Source: Candidatus Levyibacteriota bacterium
GTDB taxonomy: Bacteria; Patescibacteriota; Microgenomatia; Levybacterales; UBA12049
Direction: 5' to 3'
Length of the DNA stretch: 64,000 bases
Assembly: GCA_041906785.1 (NCBI GenBank)
Contig: JAYRIM010000021.1
Coordinates: 17,881-81,880 of the forward strand
Positions 709 to 37,098 of this stretch are shown piece by piece (position 1 is the first letter of the stretch; every line of letters begins with the position of its first letter). A program made the position numbers and the translations under genes. The notes under the pieces are model-generated. The model had not been told where the DNA came from. It was given only the letters and a program-made list of their open reading frames with translations, and made no database searches.

Positions 709-1563
709 TTATTTTATACTTTTTTTAAACATTATGAAGCTTGTGAGAATGATAAGTAGTAAGAGTATTATTCCTGCATAAAAACCGGCATTTTGTTGAG
801 ATGTTTTATTTCTAACTATATTAGAAGCATTTTCATCATTTCTCAGCGGGACTGCAGCATAAGAGTAATATCCTTTCGTATCTTTCACACGTAAGACGAC
901 GGTTGCAAAAAATTGATCCTTAAAAGTGTGGTTTACTACGGAGCCTTTTTCTGTTTTACCATCCCCAAAACTCCAAAGATATTCAGTAATAGAAGCATTT
1001 GGTGTTGATTTCGTTCCGTCAAGTGTGACTGGATAAGTAAATGATACATTCTGAATATCTGTCGTCTTCTTTACAACTTTTCCGTTAACAGAAATAAGCG
1101 CTTTCGGAAACGCTTCGTCTGTTTTCTGAGGAACAATAGTTATAAATACAGATTCTTCAACTTTAATTGTTTCCTGATTCTCATCTTTATACACAACAGT
1201 AGCGTATGTAATATACGAACCACTGTTCTTAAACTTGTGAATCGGTGCGGATTCTTTCGAATCTGTTCCATCTCCAAAATTCCAAAGTACTGATATATCG
1301 TCGAGTTTATCTTCTGGCACTAATGATTCCAGACTTTCAGTATTAATTTCAAATTGTATTGGAGTATTCACAAGTATTGGTGTTTTTACTTCTTCTGAAG
1401 GAAGAGGGAAGCCTACTGTGGAATCATCTTCAATCTCTATGGGAAAAGCTGAAGCAGGCTGTTTATTAATAAAAAAGAAAGGTTCATGAGCAGTTCCATG
1501 AGCGAGGCTTAAGCTTGGAAAAAATAGAATTACACTTATGATAAAAAAGATAATTTTTGCCAT
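709..1563 (-). CDS. secreted/membrane-anchored PKD-repeat protein
   Basis: N-terminal signal peptide, two WxFGDG(T/K) PKD-like motifs, C-terminal hydrophobic anchor. Confidence 0.55.
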   Translation of the reverse strand: MAKIIFFIISVILFFPSLSLAHGTAHEPFFFINKQPASAFPIEIEDDSTVGFPLPSEEVKTPILVNTPIQFEINTESLESLVPEDKLDDISVLWNFGDGTDSKESAPIHKFKNSGSYITYATVVYKDENQETIKVEESVFITIVPQKTDEAFPKALISVNGKVVKKTTDIQNVSFTYPVTLDGTKSTPNASITEYLWSFGDGKTEKGSVVNHTFKDQFFATVVLRVKDTKGYYSYAAVPLRNDENASNIVRNKTSQQNAGFYAGIILLLLIILTSFIMFKKSIK

Positions 1564-1669
1564 TATTGTATATAATATGCAATTTTATCATATCTCCTTT
1601 ATTAAAAAACTGGTGATTTATCAGTTCTGAATCAAGAAGTTTAGAAAATAAATGACCATTTTCCTATGG

Positions 1670-1684
1670 GACTTGACAAGTCCT
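1670..1684. promoter_or_regulatory. perfect 7-1-7 inverted repeat GGACTTGaCAAGTCC containing TTGACA; candidate operator/-35 in divergent intergenic region
   Basis: Palindrome read directly; lies ~480 nt upstream of GC-rich ORF start 2162 and ~110 nt upstream of minus-strand PKD gene start. Confidence 0.25.
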
Positions 1685-1825
1685 GTAGTATATGATAAAC
1701 AGAGATTAGTTTCTAATTTCGCTAGACTAATTCGCTGTCTTTCCCGAATAGGAAACATGTTGCTCTTTAACAATAGAGTGGCATGAGAGGAGCGTTTGGA
1801 TCTAGTACCGCTGTGGCTTTTTTCT

Positions 1826-2075
1826 GGGAAGCGGGTTGAAGCATTTATTGAAGTTGCATAGTTCAGGAGTAATCTGAACAGGTGCAACTTTTTTTTAAGA
1901 ACTTCAATTCGCTTCCCAGAATCCGGAGAGATCTCTGGTGAAGCACAAAGTCCTTCCTCGCGATTGAGCGAGGAAAGGTCCGGTATCGATCCGGTCTTAC
2001 TGCTAGTCAACCTTCCTGGAGAAGGGCCGTCAAGGCCGCCAGAAAGAGGCAGTATGGCTTCCTACGCTCCCTGAC
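1826..2075 (+). ncRNA. highly structured non-coding region (93-nt nested hairpin 1826-1918 GGGAAGCG..CGCTTCCC, followed by several 4-12 bp hairpins); candidate sRNA or structured 5' leader
   Basis: Multiple perfect/near-perfect stems seen; the only ORF here (1621..2010 minus) is low-complexity and implausible. Confidence 0.25.
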
Positions 2076-2161
2076 GTTTGGGAGAGGATCGAAATCGGTC
2101 TATCGAAACGTCTTTTTTCTTCATCGGGGGTACTGCCCCCACCCGCCCCAAGGAGGCACCC

Positions 2162-2971
2162 ATGTTCGCGCGACGCATAATGTTCGCCTTGCCGGTCATT
2201 CTGGCCGGCTTACTTGTTGCAGCCAGTATGGTTGCGACCGGAGCGCCGCCCGCCTCGGCGCAGGAACCGTCTACGGACGAACTCGTCCTCAGCTTGTCAG
2301 CCGACGAGGTTCTCGGCTACATGAGCCAGCCCGGGTGGGTTGGCGACGTCGAGGCTGTCAAGACCTCGCTTAGGCAGTCGAAGGCTGAGTCTACGGCCGT
2401 AAGCTGTTCGGAGCGTCCCAGTTTCTCTTACATCGCATTGGCTGTTGGCCCTGGTCCTGTCGTTGGAGGTCGCAAGTCCGTCATGACTGTGCGGACGTTC
2501 CGCAACCCGGATCCCAGCCTGGAGCACAGGTGGGGACCAGGTTTTGGTGGAGACTATTCGCTGACCACCAACTGCATGCAGGCGGACAATCTGGTTTCGG
2601 CTCGCTTCGTCACTGACGAAAACATGCGTGGGTCGTTCACGGCTACGTATGGGCTATATGTTCACACCACCAACCAAGCGGCGGTCGGACCGGTTACTGT
2701 TAACTACACGTATCCGTTCCAGCCTGCCGCGACGGCGACGAGCTTGCCCTACCCCGCGCCGTCACGCACGCCCGAGGCGTATCCCACCCCAACCGCCACG
2801 GTCACCCGTGGCTTCAGCGGTCAGGTGAGCACCCAGCACACCTGCCGGCAAGGTAACCCTGTACTTCGCGAAGGCATCGCGCATCCCGCGCCGTTACCCA
2901 CAGGCTTCCGGCTCTTGTGCGTCGGGCTTAACGACGCCTACCCGGTTTTCCAGCCGGTTCAGCCGCACTAA
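2162..2971 (+). CDS. GC-rich (about 62% GC) secreted protein of unknown function with Pro/Thr-rich C-terminal region; probable horizontally acquired gene
   Basis: AAGGAGG Shine-Dalgarno 7 nt upstream of ATG 2162; signal peptide MFARRIMFALPVILAGLLVAASMVATGAPPASA; strong GC3 codon bias in this frame; alternative-frame ORFs are Arg-rich as expected for off-frame GC-rich coding. Confidence 0.5.
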   Translation: MFARRIMFALPVILAGLLVAASMVATGAPPASAQEPSTDELVLSLSADEVLGYMSQPGWVGDVEAVKTSLRQSKAESTAVSCSERPSFSYIALAVGPGPVVGGRKSVMTVRTFRNPDPSLEHRWGPGFGGDYSLTTNCMQADNLVSARFVTDENMRGSFTATYGLYVHTTNQAAVGPVTVNYTYPFQPAATATSLPYPAPSRTPEAYPTPTATVTRGFSGQVSTQHTCRQGNPVLREGIAHPAPLPTGFRLLCVGLNDAYPVFQPVQPH

Positions 2972-3025
2972 CCGTGGTGGCATTCCCGGACTGTGATTGT
3001 CCAAAAACCGGGACCATGAGGTTCC

Positions 3026-3084
3026 CTGCCCCCGGCCGCGCAAAACGCGGCGAGACAAGCCCGCGCCAGGTGGCCGGGGGGCAG
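3026..3084 (+). terminator. long GC-rich hairpin (CTGCCCCCGGCC...GGCCGGGGGGCAG) without U-tract, downstream of GC-rich ORF
   Basis: 12-bp outer stem seen in sequence; resembles high-GC-organism intrinsic terminators lacking a T run. Confidence 0.35.
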
Positions 3085-3456
3085 GCCCTTGGGTCTGAGA
3101 AAGAAAGAAACACATGAAGGCGTTTCAAAAAACAAAAAGAACATGCTCCAAGCGACGGAAAACCCGTACTCTTGGAGGTGCCCAAATAAACTCATGCCAC
3201 TCTCTGATTCTGTATTCTTGAATTACCTATTATTGTCATGCTGAACTTGTTTCAGCATCTCAATTGTTAGTGGTGGGATCTTGAAACCTACCTATGTCAA
3301 GCAGGCGAGCTCCTTTGCAACGCTGAGTCCGCAAGTTCGGGATGACAAATATTCGAGGATAGAGAGTTGGAGATTGACTATTATATATTGTACTTATTTC
3401 TTGTTCAGTGATTGTAATCATTTTCTACTTAGTTTACTATATTTATATACTTAAAC

Positions 3457-4863
3457 ATGCCATTAAAACCTCTACAAGTAAATACGCTTCCTGATTCCCC
3501 TTCACTAAAAAAAATAATTGGTCCCAGTTTTATCATCTTAGCTTTAGGTTTAGGTAGCGGAGAAGTTATCCTTTGGCCGTACCTGAGTTCAAATTATGGG
3601 TTAGGTATTATTTGGGGAGCGCTTCTAGGGTTAACATTTCAGTTCTTTATGAACATGGAAATAGAGCGCTATGCACTCGCGCATGGAGAAAGTGTATTCG
3701 TAGGTTTAGCAAGAAAAATACGTTTGGTTTCTTTCTGGTTTCTTTTTTCTACATTTATCCCCTGGATGTGGCCAGGCATCATAGCGTCATCTGCTAAATT
3801 CTTCGGTACGGTATTCGGATTGACGGATACAAACATACTCACTATTTTTTTATTAATATTTATTGGTACCATTCTATCGCTTGGGCCTGTCCTGTATAAG
3901 ACTGTCGAACGATTACAAAAAACAATTATTTCAATCGGCGTCCCCTCAATATTTTTATTAAGTATTTTTCTGGCTAAACCTGAAGATTGGACTACATTAG
4001 CAAAAGGTTCAATCGGTATAGGTAAAGATTTTCTATTTTTACCTGAAGGCATCGCAATTGCCTCATTTCTGGGAGCCTTAGCATATGCAGGAGCAGGAGG
4101 GAATTTAAATCTCGCACAGTCTTTCTACATTAAGGAAAAAGGATATGGAATGGGAAAATATGCAGGTAGAATCACGAGTTTATTAACAGGTAAAAACGAA
4201 GATGTTTCTTTAACTGGTAGTAGATTTGAACCCACTGAAGACAATCTTAAAAAATTTAAAATGTGGTGGAAAAATATTAATATTGAACACTTTGTCGTTT
4301 TTTGGGTAACAGGATCAATAACCATTCTTTTACTAGCATTACTCGCATATGCAACTGTCTTTGGGGATCCTGGAAATACTCAAGGAGTCAGCTTCGTCAT
4401 TCGTGAAGCACAAACAATTGGCGAACGAACCCTACCATTTGTAGGAACATTTTTCCTTCTCGTAGTTGGGACAACACTTTTCGGCACACAACTTGGTGTC
4501 TTTGATGCGACAAGCCGTATATTATCTGAAAATCTTATATTAGCGTCCTTCCACAGATTGAGCGAAAAACATTTAAGGAAGCTTTATTATATAGTTTTAT
4601 GGGCACAAATAGCAGCTGGAATAACAATCATGTTATTAGGATTTACGGAACCACTTCAGCTAGTCATTACTGCGGCTGTATTAAATGCATTTGCCATGTT
4701 TGTGCACACCGGCTTAACACTCTGGTTAAATTTTACATCTTTGCAAAAACCGATTAGGCCTTCACTGTTTCGTGTAACTTTCATGGTTTTAGCATTTCTA
4801 TTTTACGGAGGTTTTAGTATCTACACATTCTACGATCGTTTCTTAGCTACTTTTTTGAAATAA
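3457..4863 (+). CDS. Nramp-related divalent cation transporter-like membrane protein
   Basis: 11-12 predicted TM segments; N-terminal GPSFIILALGLGSGEV and LLGLTFQFFMNMEIERYALAHG resemble the Nramp/MntH first two TM consensus (GPGFL..DPGN / LLLQRLAARLG) with DPGN replaced. Confidence 0.4.
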   Translation: MPLKPLQVNTLPDSPSLKKIIGPSFIILALGLGSGEVILWPYLSSNYGLGIIWGALLGLTFQFFMNMEIERYALAHGESVFVGLARKIRLVSFWFLFSTFIPWMWPGIIASSAKFFGTVFGLTDTNILTIFLLIFIGTILSLGPVLYKTVERLQKTIISIGVPSIFLLSIFLAKPEDWTTLAKGSIGIGKDFLFLPEGIAIASFLGALAYAGAGGNLNLAQSFYIKEKGYGMGKYAGRITSLLTGKNEDVSLTGSRFEPTEDNLKKFKMWWKNINIEHFVVFWVTGSITILLLALLAYATVFGDPGNTQGVSFVIREAQTIGERTLPFVGTFFLLVVGTTLFGTQLGVFDATSRILSENLILASFHRLSEKHLRKLYYIVLWAQIAAGITIMLLGFTEPLQLVITAAVLNAFAMFVHTGLTLWLNFTSLQKPIRPSLFRVTFMVLAFLFYGGFSIYTFYDRFLATFLK

Positions 4864-14296: not shown

Positions 14297-14328
14297 GTTA
14301 TGAGTTATGAGTTATGAGTTATGAGTTA
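14297..14328. repeat. tandem heptamer repeat (GTTATGA) x4.5
   Basis: gttatgagttatgagttatgagttatgagtta read directly. Confidence 0.9.
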
Positions 14329-15228: not shown

Positions 15229-18135
15229 ATGGAAAAAATTATAATTCGTGGAGCTAGAGAACATAATCTTAAAAACGTTAATTTGGAAATTCCGAAAAAT
15301 AAACTAGTGGTTTTTACTGGTTTATCAGGAAGTGGAAAATCATCTCTCGCCTTTGACACGATTTATGCCGAAGGACAACGCCGGTATGTAGAGAGTTTAT
15401 CTTCATATGCTCGTCAGTTTTTAGGAACGATGAAAAAACCCGATGTGGACCTTATCGAAGGGTTATCTCCGGCAATTTCTATTGACCAGAAATCTACTTC
15501 ACATAATCCACGTTCGACAGTCGGGACAGTTACTGAAATTTATGATTATCTTCGTTTATTATTCGCCCGAGTAGGGCATCCTCATTGTCCAAAATGTGGA
15601 AGAGAAATAGCCCGACAGTCTAAAGAGCAGATTACAAATGCTATTGCGGATCTAACACAGCAGTATCCGCAACTTGGTAAAAAACCGCTACGCACATTAA
15701 TCATGGCACCACTTGTGAAAGATAGAAAAGGTGAATATACAGAGATGTTTACTAGTCTGCGGAAACGGGGATATTCAAAAGTCCGTATTGATGGGAGAGT
15801 ATATGGACTTGATGAAAAAATTGTACTGATTAAGACAAATAAACATAGTATTGATCTTATTATTGATAGCATTGTTATCAATAAAGAAACAGATCGGACT
15901 CGTTTAGCAACTGACGTAGAACAGGCACTGCAATTCGGTAATGGAGAAATGATCGTCGGCGTTATCCATGATGCTTCATTCGACATTCCTGATAAGCCTG
16001 AACAGATCGAAGACCATTTATATTCTGAAAAATTTGCATGTCCAGTAGATAATATTTCTATTTCCGAAGTTGAGCCACGTATTTTTTCTTTTAATACACC
16101 CCATGGAGCATGTCCTGAATGTTCTGGTCTTGGCCGTGTTTTAGATGTAGATAAGGATTTAGTTTTTAATAAAGATTTATCTATTAATGAAGGAGGAATC
16201 TTGCCTTTCTTCAATATGATGATGAATGATACATGGATGTCACGGACGTTTAAGACATTTTGTAAAGAAAATGGACTTCCTATGGATAAACGACTTGGAG
16301 CATTATCAGAAGAACAAATCAATTTATTGTTGTACGGAACAGGAGACCGACAATATTATGTAAAAGGAGAAAATAGATGGGGAATGTCTACAGCGATTCG
16401 TGAATCATTTAAAGGAATTTCTTATGAATTAAAACGCCGCTATTCAGAATCAGATTCAGAATATGTTAAAGCGCAGATCGAAAAGTTCATGCGATATGAA
16501 GTTTGCCATGTTTGTGAAGGTGCACGGTTAAAACCAGAAGCTCTTTCAGTTACGATAGAAAAAGAGTCTATTGTCGCAGTTTCAGAGATGTCTATCCGGG
16601 ATGCCTTAGCATTTATCGAATCACTACCGAGTAAAATGTCTGATAGAGAAAATGAAATAGGCCGCTTAATTCTCCGTGAAATTCGACAACGTCTCTCTTT
16701 CTTGGTAGATGTAGGACTCGATTATTTAACACTTGCAAGAAGTGCAGCAACTTTAGCAGGCGGAGAAGCACAACGTATTCGCTTGGCATCACAAATAGGG
16801 AGTGGTTTAACCGGTGTGCTGTATGTTCTCGATGAACCATCTATTGGTTTACACCAGCGTGATAATACGAAATTAATAGAAACGCTTAAAAAACTCCGTG
16901 GGTTAGGAAATACTGTACTTGTGGTCGAGCATGATGAAGATACTATGAAAGCAGCGGATTATATTTATGATTTCGGTCCTGGAGCTGGGGTACATGGAGG
17001 AAATATAGTCGCCAAGGGAACATATGAAGAACTTGGGAAAAATCCCGCATCTATCACTGGCGAGTATCTTTCTGGAAAGAAAAAAATACAGATCAGGAAA
17101 ACAGAAAAAGGTGTCGGAGTGGACATGGATGGAAAGGAAAGCTCAATTACTATTCTCGGAGCAACTGAACATAATTTAAAAAATATTGACGTAACTTTTC
17201 CGCTTCACAAACTAGTAGTTGTGACAGGCGTTTCTGGATCGGGTAAGTCAACATTAGTGAATGACATTTTTTATCATGCACTGATGCAAGCGAAAAATCC
17301 ATATCATCGTCAGAAACCAGGAGCACATAAAGCTATTGCAGGCCATGAGGAAATTAAGAATATTTTTCTTATAGACCAATCGCCGATTGGGAGAACTCCC
17401 CGAAGTAATCCTATTACGTATACTGGAGCATTTAACTATATTAGAGATTTGTTTGCGAGTACCAAGGAAGCGAAATTGCGTGGATATGGTCCCGGACGAT
17501 TTTCATTTAACGTTAAAGGTGGTCGATGTGAAGCATGTGAAGGTGAAGGGCAAATAAAAATCGAAATGCAGTTTCTACCGGATGTCTATGTTACATGTGA
17601 AGTTTGTGGCGGAAAACAATATAATAATGAAGCATTAGAAATATTGTTTAATAGTAAGAATATCGCAGATGTTCTTCAGATGACTGTAGCAGAAGCAACA
17701 GCGTTTTTTTCATTCGTTCCTGGTCTAGCTCATAAACTTCAAACACTGAATGATGTAGGTTTATCATATATTCGTCTCGGTCAACCCGCACCGACATTAT
17801 CTGGAGGAGAAGCCCAACGCGTGAAACTAGCTTCAGAGCTTTCAAAGAAAGGCAAAGGAGCTATTTATCTTCTCGATGAACCAACTACAGGTTTGCATTT
17901 CGCTGATTTAGAAAAATTACTACTGGTTTTCAGAAAGTTAGTTGATTTAGGAAATACAATTATCGTGATAGAACATAACTTGGATGTGATCAAAAATGCT
18001 GACTATATTATTGATTTAGGTCCAGAAGGTGGAGATAAAGGTGGAGAAATTGTCGCTCTAGGTACACCTGAAGAAGTCGCTAAGATTGACAGATCATACA
18101 CAGGACAATTCCTCAAGAAAGTCCTCAAATCCTGA
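15229..18135 (+). CDS. uvrA: excinuclease ABC subunit A
   Basis: 968 aa; N-terminal [13 protein letters not shown]...[23 protein letters not shown]; two ABC modules with Walker [11 protein letters not shown], signature LSGGEAQR twice; zinc-finger CxxC pairs. Confidence 0.95.
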
Positions 18136-24104: not shown

Positions 24105-24140
24105 GTTATGAGTTGTCAGTTGTCAGTTGTCTGTCAGTCA
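24105..24140. repeat. heptamer repeat array GTTATGA-GTTGTCA-GTTGTCA-GTTGTCT-GTCAGTCA directly upstream of secG start
   Basis: Read directly; same word family as 14297 and 25877. Confidence 0.8.
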
Positions 24141-25702: not shown

Positions 25703-25876
25703 GAGCGTTTTACCATTATACTGCAGAGAAATAGAAGAAACAATCTTTTGAGTTTCAAAGAGTCAAGGTTGCAAAGTTACTTGAAAAAATAAAACAGCTC
25801 ATCTATAATATAGGCCTATAGTCGATTTTCGGCTATTTTTATTTGCACATTGAAACAGTGACGGAATCGGGAATAT

Positions 25877-25961
25877 GGTTATCAGTTATGAGTGGTCAGT
25901 TGTCAGTTTTTGAATAAATTATATCTCACAACCCATAACTCATAACTGACAATTGATAACC
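25877..25961. repeat. 85-bp inverted repeat built from heptamer words (GGTTATCAGTTATGAGTGGTCAGTTGTCAG ... CATAACTCATAACTGACAATTGATAACC)
   Basis: Arms reverse-complementary with few mismatches; sits immediately 5' of the second GC-rich islet. Confidence 0.8.
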
Positions 25962-26109
25962 ATTTTTCCGGTTTCGTCCGAAGGAAAGCCTCAGAAAGGA
26001 GGGAAAGGCTTCAGGGACATGGTGGCGCAGCCACCCCGGACATACTCGCTTTTATAGGAGTATGCCTCAAATTCAGTAGACCGCCAGGAAGCGGTCTGGG
26101 AGGGGAAAG

Positions 26110-26532
26110 ATGTCTCGCTTGCGTCTTGAATTCGTTGGTATTCTCGCGGTGCTGCTTGCATTCGCAGCAGGTTCCGCATATGCCAGCGACTCGACAACAG
26201 AATCGGCGACTACGAAAGTCGCCAACCAGTACAGCGTAGATTGTACTGCGTACCCTGTACCGGGATCGAATCCGCCGCAGCACAGTCGGACGCCGAATGG
26301 GCAGACGGGTGTGACTATCCGAGACACAGGTACAATCAATGACCCCAACGGGGTCGTGTACCAGTGTTGGTCAGGAAATTGGAACCCAGTCACCCGGTGG
26401 AAGCAGCCCGAGGTGCAACCACAGCCACAACCCGCTCCGGGCGATCGTTGGTGGTGGACGCCATGCACGCGCTGCCAATGGGTAGCTGCGCCTACGCAGA
26501 AGGCTACCCGGACCACATACCGTCGGCGCTAA
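26110..26532 (+). CDS. GC-rich small secreted Cys/Trp-rich protein (140 aa), hypothetical; could alternatively be non-coding structured RNA
   Basis: GGAGGGG SD before ATG; signal peptide MSRLRLEFVGILAVLLAFAAGSAYA; 6 Cys, W-rich; GC3 bias only moderate and a 147-aa ORF exists on the opposite strand, so coding status uncertain. Confidence 0.35.
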   Translation: MSRLRLEFVGILAVLLAFAAGSAYASDSTTESATTKVANQYSVDCTAYPVPGSNPPQHSRTPNGQTGVTIRDTGTINDPNGVVYQCWSGNWNPVTRWKQPEVQPQPQPAPGDRWWWTPCTRCQWVAAPTQKATRTTYRRR

Positions 26533-26555
26533 CTTCAGGCTTGTTCTGTCAGCGG

Positions 26556-26580
26556 CTTCATGGGGTCGGGCGATCGGCTC
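26556..26580 (+). terminator. hairpin GGGGTCGggcgatcggctCGACCCC followed by TCATGATTTCT
   Basis: 7-bp GC stem with T-rich tail 24 nt after stop of 26110..26532. Confidence 0.4.
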
Positions 26581-26649
26581 GACCCCTCATGATTTCTCGC
26601 TTTCCTCCAAAAACTTGCATTATTTTCTTAATTGGATTTTTCCGATTTT

Positions 26650-34836: not shown

Positions 34837-37098
34837 TTATTCATGTTCGCTTTTTATCCTTCCTTGTAATGTACGTAATTCATTCAGTGCTTTTTTTGCT
34901 TCTTCTGGATTTGGCGGTTTTCCATGCCAGAGATAATTTTCTTCCATAAAATCCACACCTCTTCCAGGTATCGTATGGGCGATGATACATGTCGGTTTTT
35001 CAAAGATTGAATTCGCTTCGCGAACTGCATCGACAATAGCTCTATAGTTATGACCATCTATTTCAATTACGGACCAGTTAAATGCTTCATACTTCGCCCG
35101 AAGTGGTTCTAGAGGCATAATTTGTTCGGTAACTCCGTCTATCTGAATATTATTTCTATCAATAATAACAGTCAAATTATTAACTTTGTATTTTCCCGCA
35201 AACATAATTGCCTCCCATGTATTGCCTTCTTGATGTTCACCATCTGAAGTCAGACAATATACTTGGTATCTTTTTTTATCTAACTTTGCAGCTAATGCCA
35301 TACCTATTGCCTGTGATAGCCCTTCACCAAGCGGACCTGATGTATTCTCAACACCTGGCAATGCACCACGATGCGGATGTCCTTGTAATCTTGAATTTAT
35401 TTTTCGAAGCGTCTTTAACTCTTCTACTGGGAAAAAACCAGCTAAAGCCATTGTAACGTATTGGACGGGACAAATATGTCCGTTTGATAAGACTAATCTA
35501 TCTCTGTCTGGATCTGTCGGATTTTTCGGGTCAATATTAAGAATATGGAAATACATACATGCGAAAATATCTGCCATACCAAGTGGCCCAGCTGAATGAC
35601 CAGAACCTGCCTCTAAAAGTGTTTCAATGATCAATTGGCGTATTTGTGTGGCTTTATCTTCTAACTCTGCCACTTTATCATCGTGAAGTTCAGGAATAAC
35701 GAAATTTGAAGTTGTTTTTACTGAAATCTCTCCTGTTTTTATTTCAGTTACTTGAGAAGTTGTTTTTCCTTGCGGTTTCTCAATAGTTAATGAAGCGTCT
35801 TTCTTTCGTAATACTAGAATAATATCTGCGACATTGGAAGGAAGTTTCCCGGTCACTAAAGCATCGTTTGTTTTTTCAAGGAATTTCAGAGAATCATTAT
35901 TCTTTATATATTCTTCAGGGTTTAGTTGAGCTTTTTCAGCTTTCTCGACTGTCGTATTATCGACAATTCCACCTGCATTATGTGAATTATCCCAGCCGTC
36001 TGTACCGACTGAAGCTATTGTAACTGCGTCTCCGACGTAGGGGAGAGCAGCAAGGACGAGTTGTTGGTTTCTGCCTCCCTCTCCATTTCCTGTAACTTTT
36101 ACTGTTGTCTCTCCACCGGCGAGAAGAATCTGGCCAGGTTTTACTTGTTCTATTAAAAATTTACCCGCTTCGTTCGCATCTGCTTGATATTGATCAGAAT
36201 ATATGACAGCTTCATATCCTAATTCTGTAGCTTTATCTTTCATTGCGTTTAATGCAGTTATATTACTTAACATGACAACTGGGGAAACATGTTCAAAATA
36301 TTGGTCTTCTTTCGGGGTTTCCATAAAACATTCATTTAGGGACAACTCTGTAAGCTGAGGATACTTTTCTAAAAGCATTCTTACATCAGCGAGAGTAGAC
36401 GCGTCTTTTACTGTTGGCCCAGAAGCAATTGTCGATAAATCATTTCCTGGCACATCAGAATAAACAAGTGTTACTATCTCTGCGGGGTATAAAATTTTCG
36501 CGAGTCCTCCTCCTTTTACGGCTGACAAATGTTTTCGGATAACGTTCATTTCTTTTATATTTGCACCGCAGTGAAGAAGGGTTTTGTCTACTGCGATTTT
36601 TTGTTCAAATGTAATTCCTTTTGGAAGCTCAAACATAGCAGACCCACCACCACAAATAACTACCAGCACAAGATCCTTCTGGGTTAGTTGATATGACTCC
36701 ATTTTTTCGACTACTTGTTTCGTAAATTCGACATTTTCTGCAGATGGAAGTGGGTGAGTTCCTTTCGTAAAATTAAGCTTTGCAAACTGCTGTTCGATAA
36801 CGTCAATTACATACCCATCAGTTAACCGCTCCATTAATAATTGTTCTAGTAAATATGCGTTTTTAGCAGCTCCTTTACCGAATCCGATGAGGAATATTCT
36901 CTGATAATCAGCGAGATTGTATTGTTTATCTTGTACGATCAGTGTTTCACCCTCTAATGATATTGATTTCTTCAATACAGCTTCTGGCTGTAAAGCGGCA
37001 AATCCTGTATCGATAAGATTAAGAAGGATTGTTCTTTCTGGAGTTGTAGCAAGATCTTGGAAATTTCGTACCATCATAACTACTACCAGCTTACCCAA
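34837..37098 (-). CDS. fusion protein: glycerate 2-kinase (MOFRL family) N-terminal about 440 aa + transketolase N-terminal (thiamine-diphosphate-binding) subunit C-terminal about 290 aa
   Basis: Glycerate kinase GGETTVKVTGNGEGGRNQQ and VICGGGSAMFE motifs. Then HSAGPLGMADIF, LSNGH, GPLGEGLSQAIGMALA and LTSDGEHQEGNTWEA transketolase N-terminal motifs, in one uninterrupted 753-aa ORF. Confidence 0.75.
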   Translation of the reverse strand: MGKLVVVMMVRNFQDLATTPERTILLNLIDTGFAALQPEAVLKKSISLEGETLIVQDKQYNLADYQRIFLIGFGKGAAKNAYLLEQLLMERLTDGYVIDVIEQQFAKLNFTKGTHPLPSAENVEFTKQVVEKMESYQLTQKDLVLVVICGGGSAMFELPKGITFEQKIAVDKTLLHCGANIKEMNVIRKHLSAVKGGGLAKILYPAEIVTLVYSDVPGNDLSTIASGPTVKDASTLADVRMLLEKYPQLTELSLNECFMETPKEDQYFEHVSPVVMLSNITALNAMKDKATELGYEAVIYSDQYQADANEAGKFLIEQVKPGQILLAGGETTVKVTGNGEGGRNQQLVLAALPYVGDAVTIASVGTDGWDNSHNAGGIVDNTTVEKAEKAQLNPEEYIKNNDSLKFLEKTNDALVTGKLPSNVADIILVLRKKDASLTIEKPQGKTTSQVTEIKTGEISVKTTSNFVIPELHDDKVAELEDKATQIRQLIIETLLEAGSGHSAGPLGMADIFACMYFHILNIDPKNPTDPDRDRLVLSNGHICPVQYVTMALAGFFPVEELKTLRKINSRLQGHPHRGALPGVENTSGPLGEGLSQAIGMALAAKLDKKRYQVYCLTSDGEHQEGNTWEAIMFAGKYKVNNLTVIIDRNNIQIDGVTEQIMPLEPLRAKYEAFNWSVIEIDGHNYRAIVDAVREANSIFEKPTCIIAHTIPGRGVDFMEENYLWHGKPPNPEEAKKALNELRTLQGRIKSEHE

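Follow-up and report, generated by a model that had tools for sequence, protein, structure and literature searches.

The question addressed here is why a stretch of about 60% GC lies in the AT-rich genome of Candidatus Levyibacteriota bacterium, within the 64,000-nucleotide (nt) segment of contig JAYRIM010000021.1 that was analysed as a whole and is called the window below. The initial annotation had taken this stretch, here termed islet 1, for a recent horizontal acquisition from a high-GC donor. We lean towards another reading, namely that islet 1 is a conserved, lineage-specific and highly structured mRNA unit with a novel leader and 5′-3′ pairing, whose GC content is maintained by selection. 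As to its descent, the best explanation is that islet 1 is vertically inherited and confined to a narrow clade of AT-rich bacteria belonging to the candidate phyla radiation (CPR)/Patescibacteria (Microgenomates-like). Compositional islands are routinely read as horizontally transferred DNA, a reading that fails for islet 1, which has been held in place across saturated neutral divergence. GC-based filters for islands or contamination would wrongly drop such loci from CPR genome bins.

Composition, relatives and probable upkeep of GC in islet 1

The GC content of the window is 36.4%. It reaches 60.0% and 62.2% in the 500-nt intervals 2001-2500 and 2501-3000, and is 34-37% in the adjoining intervals. 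Positions 1930-3100 have 61.5% GC against 35.7% in the remaining window, in agreement with the jump to about 60% in AT-rich surroundings that had been described initially. In a 100-nt profile, GC rises from about 1900 and falls at about 3100. The conserved unit (about 1673-3203) is wider than the interval of 2078-3090 first annotated. Islet 1 occupies a 1.9-kb gap between divergent genes encoding a PKD protein (709-1563, minus strand) and a membrane protein (3457-4863, plus strand). The genes of the window include those for UvrA, DinB, and CofD.

An abrupt shift in composition is a classic sign of an assembly or binning chimera, in this case a high-GC fragment joined into a CPR contig. However, AT-rich host sequence flanks islet 1 on both sides, and a Logan contig from SRR26835457, an independent assembly, is identical to window positions 1648-3261 and thus crosses both junctions. 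In addition, the islet architecture recurs with its flanks in two further assemblies from other samples, and conservation between genomes includes the junction regions. A chimera is very unlikely and, for islet 1, effectively ruled out.

The initial annotation had proposed a protein search, and an exhaustive phmmer search of 1.84 billion representative proteins with the islet 1 protein (P0001) returned only two homologues, P0004 (258 amino acids [aa], 38% identity, E = 1.4e-21) and P0005 (272 aa, 32% identity, E = 3.5e-6). A word-indexed search of 5.8 billion clusters with P0001 found the query itself alone, and a profile search from the islet 1 family gave no further homologues. Both homologues lie in AT-rich, CPR-like DNA, and no homologue in any high-GC organism, which could have pointed to a donor, was found among the 1.84 billion representatives searched exhaustively or the 5.8 billion clusters searched by word index. 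P0004 is encoded in locus L082, part of a CPR metagenome-assembled genome (MAG; GCA_964512695.1), where an islet of 57% GC (55-60% along its length) lies amid DNA of 26-39% GC. The sequence of L082 is matched by an independent Logan contig (L083), and L082 clearly comes from a CPR genome. P0005 is encoded in L084, a short unbinned 2-kb metagenome contig that consists of a GC-rich gene, a 30% GC spacer, and a second GC-rich gene. Many MAG records labelled ‘uncultured Gammaproteobacteria bacterium’ (L004, L005, L029, L082, and others) are evidently CPR/Patescibacteria by gene content, composition, and similarity, and their labels look wrong.

The islet of L082 stands at the orthologous position, between the genes for a 64-aa protein and the PKD protein on one side and those for a mechanosensitive (MS) channel and UvrA on the other. 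The amino acid identities between the window and L082 are as follows.

64-aa protein: 72%
PKD protein: 35-37%
Islet 1 protein: 33-40%
MS channel: 81%
90-aa protein: 55%
UvrA: 89%
Transglutaminase-like protein: 87%

A tRNA-Glu(UUC) gene lies near the islet in both genomes and is neither interrupted nor duplicated. Judging from these sequences, surface proteins in this clade evolve very fast, the PKD protein (window 709-1563, minus strand; L082 239-1123, minus strand) being 35-37% identical against 81-89% for housekeeping proteins. This adjacent secreted PKD protein evolves as fast as the islet 1 protein and has an ordinary AT-rich composition; therefore, the GC content of the islet cannot be put down to fast evolution or secretion alone.

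We used the neighbouring uvrA gene as a measure of neutral divergence. At four-fold degenerate sites of identical UvrA residues, the window and L082 are 35% identical, which corresponds to saturation, and these sites have 25-26% GC. In the islet gene, the equivalent sites have 76% GC in the window and 53% GC in L082. The GC contents of the three codon positions (GC1/GC2/GC3) are.61/.54/.71 in the P0001 gene (GC3 0.707, against 0.235-0.29 in eight host genes) and almost flat in the homologues (.60/.54/.58 and.62/.51/.59). The G/C-biased third positions noted initially are thus present, and the first two positions (GC1 0.61, GC2 0.54) are raised as well. The GC3 values of the three homologues (.71/.58/.59) contrast with.23-.30 in host genes, and genes of truly high-GC genomes have a GC3 of.71-.92 with a GC2 of.40-.60. 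The fraction of glycine, alanine, arginine, and proline (GARP) residues is 0.32-0.35 in the islet proteins and 0.17-0.24 in most sampled host proteins (one reaches 0.28). According to our own two-state relaxation estimate, a passively ameliorating gene keeps less than 10% of its initial GC excess; the estimate takes the equilibrium GC3 as about 0.25, each lineage as having undergone one or more substitutions per neutral site, and the relaxation rate as about 2.7 times the substitution rate. Since neutral sites are saturated and GC3 is still.58-.71, the GC content of the islet is maintained rather than left over. The high GC content of islet 1 appears to be under active maintenance that extends to synonymous sites and amino acid choice.

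These results do not bear out a recent horizontal acquisition, given that no high-GC homologue exists in the databases searched, that the homologues themselves lie in islets within AT-rich DNA, and that the L082 islet is syntenic at saturated neutral sites. An island of similar GC content in relatives, which the initial annotation had named as evidence against its own proposal, is present in L082, the one syntenic relative available.

Predicted RNA architecture of islet 1

The features of islet 1 are listed below in the order of their window positions; all are on the plus strand.

1673-1701: putative promoter, with the -35 element TTGACA (1673-1678), a 17-nt spacer, and the extended -10 element TGnTAAACA (1693-1701)
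1707-2161: structured 5′ leader of about 455 nt, recognised by its folding excess and its conservation with L082
1756-1766: local pairing partner CATGTTGCTCT, predicted, in the leader folded alone, to be able to pair with 1775-1785 through three G-U pairs
1775-1787: 5′ arm of the closing helix, AGAGTGGCATGAG, complementary at 13 of 13 positions to 3191-3203
1822-1921: long hairpin, with the stem 1822-1841/1902-1921 and a variable tip at 1843-1901
1923-1938 and 1951-1979: two small hairpins with compensatory substitutions relative to L082
2073-2118: terminator-like hairpin GACGTTT...AAACGTC followed by TTTTTT, with a stem kept in all three loci
2150-2156: Shine-Dalgarno (SD) sequence AAGGAGG, read from the sequence, with a 5-nt spacer to the ATG at 2162
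2162-2971: coding sequence (CDS) of the 269-aa protein P0001, with a predicted signal peptide, an N-terminal domain, a proline/threonine (P/T)-rich linker, and a C-terminal cysteine segment
3012-3095: conserved 3′ hairpin, consisting of an invariant core (CUGCCCCCGG/CCGGGGGGCAG, 3025-3085) and an apex that is branched and variable
3191-3203: 3′ arm of the closing helix, CTCATGCCACTCT, invariant in three loci and pairing with 1775-1787

The similarity between the window and L082 begins at the putative promoter, which reads TTGACG-17-TGgTAAATA in L082, and transcription is predicted to start at about 1707. The minimum free energy (MFE) of the leader is -188.3 kcal/mol (z = -7.2 against 100 dinucleotide-preserving shuffles). 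The fold z values for the two leaders were -8.1 and -5.7, and that of the two-sequence consensus fold, against column shuffles, was -8.1. The alignment of the two full leaders contains 112 consensus pairs, eight of them with compensatory double changes. Leader identity to L082 is 69% overall and is distributed unevenly, with blocks of 85% (1700-1842), 84% (1902-1950), and 88% (2071-2115) and variable stretches of 42-52%. In both genomes, the plus strand of the leader folds about 28 kcal/mol better than the minus strand. A search of the 4227 Rfam families, with the whole window at gathering thresholds and with islet 1 and L082 at E ≤ 10, gave only tRNAs and noise. An antisense open reading frame (ORF) at 1621-2010 on the minus strand was considered as the cause of the leader conservation and rejected, because indels of 16, 4, and 1 nt break its frame relative to L082.

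Within the leader, the arms of the long hairpin comprise 20 nt and are 90% complementary; the stem is kept with one compensatory change, and the tip is 42% identical. In the small hairpins, CCGGAG/CUCUGG of the window is replaced by CCAGGG/CCCUGG in L082, and CCUUCCUCGC/GCGAGGAAAGG by CCUUCCCUGC/GUAGGGAGUGG. A possible relation to RNase P, raised by GAGGAAAGGTCCGG at 1969-1982, was discarded; this motif is not kept in L082 and is merely one arm of a hairpin, and Rfam was negative. Both the local pairing partner at 1756-1766 and the 5′ arm of the closing helix at 1775-1787 are identical in L082. Their predicted pairing (1756-1766 with 1775-1785) would compete with the long-range closing helix. 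Of the three loci, the window and L084 have a U-run behind the terminator-like hairpin, and L082 has none. The 5′ half of this hairpin is predicted to be able to pair instead with the upstream leader (1738-1749 with 2076-2087). The hairpin may be an attenuator. A conserved short upstream ORF of nine codons at 1757-1786 (MLLFNNRVA*; in L082, MLLFKNRVA*) shares sequence with the 5′ arm of the closing helix. Its translation is doubtful, since the putative SD sequence (AGGA) lies only 3 nt from the ATG.

The gene itself is genuine and probably encodes a secreted protein, as had been annotated. The three homologous ORFs are intact and have in common the SD sequence, the layout of the signal peptide, cysteines, and the P/T-rich linker. 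The perfect AAGGAGG annotated initially is kept in both homologous loci, with a spacer of 5-6 nt. The start codon at 2162 agrees with the homologues and with the database gene call; the other proposed boundary, 2078, is merely the TTG of the longest possible ORF. The N-terminus of P0001 (MFARRIMFALPVILAGLLVAASMVATGAPPASA, followed by QEP) has a basic n-region, a hydrophobic core, and an A-x-A motif. These Sec-like features, which recur in the same layout in both homologues, support the predicted signal peptide, and P0001 is probably secreted. The N-terminal domain contains two conserved cysteines and the motif HRWGxGFGGDY. The Pro/Thr-rich stretch described as a tail does exist, but it is a linker that covers about residues 185-215; beyond it lies a C-terminal segment, about 55 aa long, in which two cysteines are conserved. 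Judging from the conserved ORF, SD sequence, signal peptide, cysteine pattern, and HRWGxGFGGDY motif, the islet 1 protein is under selection. The islet proteins had no match in Pfam, PHROGs, or a PDB-sequence profile search. An AlphaFold2 model of P0001 from the three-sequence alignment had a predicted local distance difference test score of 44, which makes it unreliable and too poor for a fold search.

The predicted structure extends into the CDS. Compared with synonymous-codon shuffles, the MFE of the CDS had z values of -2.5 in the window, -4.0 in L082, and -5.2 in L084. The same test gave -1.5 and -0.8 for two AT-rich host genes, and a mean of -0.98 (standard deviation 1.36, minimum -3.2) for twelve genes of truly GC-rich metagenomic contigs. 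The CDS family of islet 1 is shifted to more structure than expected, the value of the window alone being unexceptional.

Downstream of the gene, a long GC hairpin with no U-tract had been annotated, and it is present at 3025-3085. It had been interpreted as an actinobacterial-type terminator, an interpretation that the comparison with the homologues does not uphold. The hairpin is a conserved element, and a segment complementary to the leader follows it 42-105 nt downstream. The U-tract is absent in the window and L084, a T-run follows the hairpin in L082 only, and a terminator scanner gave no call. The three-sequence consensus fold has 30 pairs, five of them compensatory and mostly at the base and apex, with an invariant core. 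Behind the hairpin, 42-105 nucleotides cannot be aligned; the invariant ACTCATGCCACTCT follows, and directly downstream of it conservation ends. Because this conserved 13-14-nt segment lies beyond the hairpin, the functional transcript probably reads through 3025-3085, as far as the sequences indicate. The closing arms are the sole two occurrences of the 13-mer in the window, against 0.06 expected by chance, and the closing helix forms in the full-length MFE folds of both genomes. Complementarity between the 5′ and 3′ untranslated regions (UTRs), if both belong to one transcript, is thus 13/13, unique in the window, and kept in the homologues.

From these features, we propose that a sigma-70-type promoter (about 1673-1701) would drive an RNA of about 1.5 kb. 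This RNA would comprise the structured leader (about 455 nt), an ORF that is preceded by a strong SD sequence and encodes a fast-evolving, cysteine-containing secreted protein, the G/C hairpin, and the 13-nt 3′ segment. The 3′ segment (3191-3203) would pair with the leader (1775-1787) and close the mRNA as a panhandle, and the leader and the 5′-3′ pairing could control the stability and/or translation of the mRNA. In the leader alone, 1738-1749 is predicted to pair with 2076-2087, and 1756-1766 to pair locally with 1775-1785, including G-U pairs. In the presence of the 3′ end, the closing helix 1775-1787/3191-3203 and the terminator-like hairpin, in this fold at 2073-2112 and followed by a U-run, could form instead. 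A terminator-like hairpin before the SD sequence, together with two mutually exclusive leader folds, would make a possible switch, and the alternative folds suggest a control of read-through, translation, or stability. The most likely cause of the GC-richness is, we infer, selection for stable RNA secondary structure along the whole transcript. If this is the true cause, islet 1 would offer a clear natural example of a bacterial gene whose codon and amino acid choice is dominated by selection at the RNA level. It would also give the CPR bacteria, which are poorly understood, a new large RNA motif tied to fast-evolving secreted proteins that are candidates for host interaction.

Several observations weigh against this reading. 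The closing arms and the hairpin core show zero variation, and a DNA-level role, such as that of a protein-binding inverted repeat, is possible for them. Three members are known, two of them with the leader, so that covariation statistics are weak. MFE structures predicted for RNAs of 1.5 kb are unreliable in detail, and the CDS value of the window (z = -2.5) lies inside the tail of ordinary high-GC genes, three of the 12 controls having values of -2.7 or below. A consensus promoter scanner did not flag 1673-1701 (the scanner demands T at position 6 of the -10 hexamer), and the transcription start, the 3′ end, and the read-through of the 3025-3085 hairpin are all inferred. A metagenome scan for the 3′ hairpin (CTGCCCCCGG-N(25-50)-CCGGGGGGCAG) returned 56 loci, all from ordinary GC-rich genomes and lacking the closing arm, and no new members; this is a weak negative, as the collection is incomplete and L084 was not returned either.

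Alternative explanations and known counterparts

The points against a structured mRNA unit leave room for other readings. Horizontal acquisition from a high-GC donor, whether it took place recently or long ago with passive retention of the foreign composition, would account for the strongly atypical composition (61.5% against 35.7% GC), for the order GC3 > GC1 > GC2 in the window gene, which is that of a high-GC gene, and for an amino acid composition like that of high-GC organisms. The family is tiny and its clade narrow, and a single old acquisition at the base of the clade is possible as the ultimate origin. However, none of the high-GC genomes covered by the searches holds a homologue, and the islet is orthologously placed in L082 despite saturated neutral sites, where two-state relaxation would have left less than 10% of the excess. 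The flat GC1/2/3 of the homologues is unlike that of true high-GC genes, a host-type promoter and leader are conserved together with the gene, and no integrase or direct repeats were seen. We therefore consider horizontal acquisition quite unlikely. The main product could instead be a large functional RNA of about 1.5 kb, ornate or regulatory, in which the embedded ORF is secondary, that is, a dual-function RNA. Conservation is far stronger in the RNA elements, with blocks of 84-88% identity, than in the protein, with 38% amino acid identity; GC is raised at all codon positions with amino acid usage bent to GC-rich codons, structure is in excess within the CDS, and a helix joins the two ends, which is also the case in many stable RNAs. 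Conservation of the ORF, SD sequence, signal peptide, cysteine pattern, and HRWGxGFGGDY shows, on the other hand, that the protein is under selection, no Rfam family matches even at E ≤ 10, and no trans target or partner protein is known. The conserved ORF features contradict a purely noncoding RNA. A dual-function RNA is possible, and a functional RNA as the primary product is unlikely.

The 13-bp arms also raise the possibility of a mobile cassette with terminal inverted repeats, such as the cargo of a transposon or of a miniature inverted-repeat transposable element, spreading among CPR genomes. The repeats are perfect, flank the GC-rich part, and are invariant in three loci, a strictness more typical of protein-binding sites than of RNA helices, and the immediate neighbours differ between the window and L082. 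Nevertheless, the overall syntenic position is unchanged in L082, the islet is present as a single copy in the window, and conservation extends about 100 nt past the left repeat, over the promoter and a 5′ hairpin, but ends exactly at the right repeat. A target-site duplication is absent (the flanks are ACAAT/CTGAT in the window and AAAAT/TATCC in L082), and neither an integrase or transposase ORF in or beside islet 1 nor flanking direct repeats were found. Four scans of viral contigs with hairpin-plus-arm and leader motifs gave zero matches. These results make a mobile cassette highly improbable. As for the target of a diversity-generating retroelement, no second copy of any part of islet 1 occurs in the window; no search was aimed at reverse transcriptase genes.

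As a structured mRNA unit, islet 1 can be compared with several known systems. Pairing between the 5′ and 3′ UTRs of bacterial mRNAs has been described for icaR of Staphylococcus aureus (PMC3868564) and hbs of Bacillus subtilis (PMC5737220). By analogy, islet 1 resembles them in a short 3′-UTR segment complementary to its own 5′ UTR, in a long structured 5′ UTR, and in a presumed effect on stability or translation. In contrast, the 3′ arm of islet 1 pairs about 375 nt upstream of the SD sequence and not with the SD sequence itself, the leader has a far greater length (about 455 nt), and the CDS, too, is GC-rich and over-structured. GC-rich stretches mark structured RNAs in AT-rich genomes, which is the basis of the GC-IGR (intergenic region) approach (PMC6429828). 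Like the RNAs of that approach, riboswitches, T-boxes, and attenuators, islet 1 has a long, GC-enriched, conserved, and folded stretch upstream of a gene in an AT-rich genome, and like attenuator leaders it has a terminator-like hairpin right before the SD sequence with possible alternative pairings. T-box leaders have a length of about 200-300 nt. Unlike riboswitch and T-box leaders, islet 1 has no match among the 4227 Rfam families, exceeds known riboswitch leaders in length, has no recognisable ligand- or tRNA-binding motif, and stays GC-rich through the CDS.

Islet 1 also shares with horizontally acquired genomic islands its form, a compositional island of about 1.2 kb with an accessory secreted-protein gene. 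Foreign DNA is usually AT-richer than the host. Unlike most genomic islands, islet 1 is GC-richer than its host and syntenic in a relative at saturated neutral divergence, with no donor homologues or mobility genes found. RNAIII of S. aureus is a dual-function RNA containing an ORF. Large ornate noncoding RNAs include OLE, GOLLD, and ROOL (PMC12286853). Islet 1 resembles all of these in its predicted very large, highly structured RNA whose ends are brought together, and RNAIII also in the presence of an ORF. It differs from them in that more than half of the RNA is taken up by the ORF for a 269-aa secreted protein, and in that Rfam shows no similarity to these families in sequence or structure.

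Further GC-rich islets and neighbouring loci

A second islet in the window (islet 2, 25960-26600) has 58% GC and contains an ORF (26110-26532, plus strand) for a 140-aa protein with a signal peptide and four cysteines. Its GC1/2/3 is flat (.57/.60/.60), and a hairpin-rich leader of about 290 nt lies behind a promoter-like TTGAAA-17-TATAAT (25781-25809). The homologue search with the islet 2 protein showed it to be an orphan, and islets 1 and 2 have no similarity at the DNA or protein level. Directly upstream of islet 2, inverted 49-nt arms form a hairpin of -48.7 kcal/mol. Intergenic heptamer repeats (GTTATGA/GTTGTCA) occur at 14297-14325 (four tandem copies), 24105-24140, and 25860-25978, and may be a regulator-binding array or a small repeat element.

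Locus L029, from the same MAG as L082, has an islet at 16400-17750 with 53-55% GC against 36%. Its ORF (16550-17743, minus strand) encodes a secreted protein of about 385-397 aa with 14 cysteines and a hydrophobic region at the C-terminus. L029 was the only one of 77 loci of at least 3 kb (L002-L081) in which a GC islet was found; the approximately 1.1 Mb of the 76 others, nearly all of which are from CPR genomes, showed none. The second GC-rich region of L084 (1260-2010) holds a gene at 1388-1924 with a GC3 of 0.75, and its membrane-protein-like product has one cysteine and an ordinary amino acid composition. This gene lies behind a TTGACA-17-TATACT promoter and is flanked by perfect 10-nt complementary segments (1306-1315/1937-1946), which, with a chance expectation of about 0.4, are not significant alone.

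The recurrence of GC islets with ORFs for secreted cysteine-containing proteins, in islet 2 and L029, hints at a class. A bolder proposal, which we put forward tentatively and regard as doubtful at present, is that the clade has an undescribed class of GC-rich, hyper-structured, end-paired coding RNAs. In such a class, RNA-level selection would act on the entire transcript of about 1.5 kb, including the CDS, override the AT mutational bias of the genome, and reshape protein composition; the RNAs would possibly be dual-function or unusually long-lived and act at the symbiont interface or cell surface. Further, unrelated members of this class would then be islet 2, the L029 islet, and the second L084 gene.

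Next to islet 1, the 468-aa polytopic membrane protein encoded at 3457-4863 (plus strand) has no Pfam match. Relatives with 56-79% identity were confirmed at 224 CPR loci, all in Patescibacteria/CPR MAGs (Levyibacteriota, Woykebacteria, Daviesbacteria, WWE3, and similar), and the protein is a member of a conserved uncharacterised transporter-like family. The 80 CPR loci examined around this gene contained no islet DNA, islet protein, or islet motifs; the gene is not syntenic with the islet elsewhere. Between islet 1 and this gene, the stretch 3250-3350 has about 48% GC and contains a hairpin at 3232-3264. It has no Rfam match at E ≤ 10 and could be a separate leader for the transporter-like gene. 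Elsewhere in the window, a 752-aa ORF (34837-37098, minus strand) shows an unusual fusion of an N-terminal glycerate 2-kinase-like part (residues 8-427) with the N-terminal half of a transketolase (residues 472-746).

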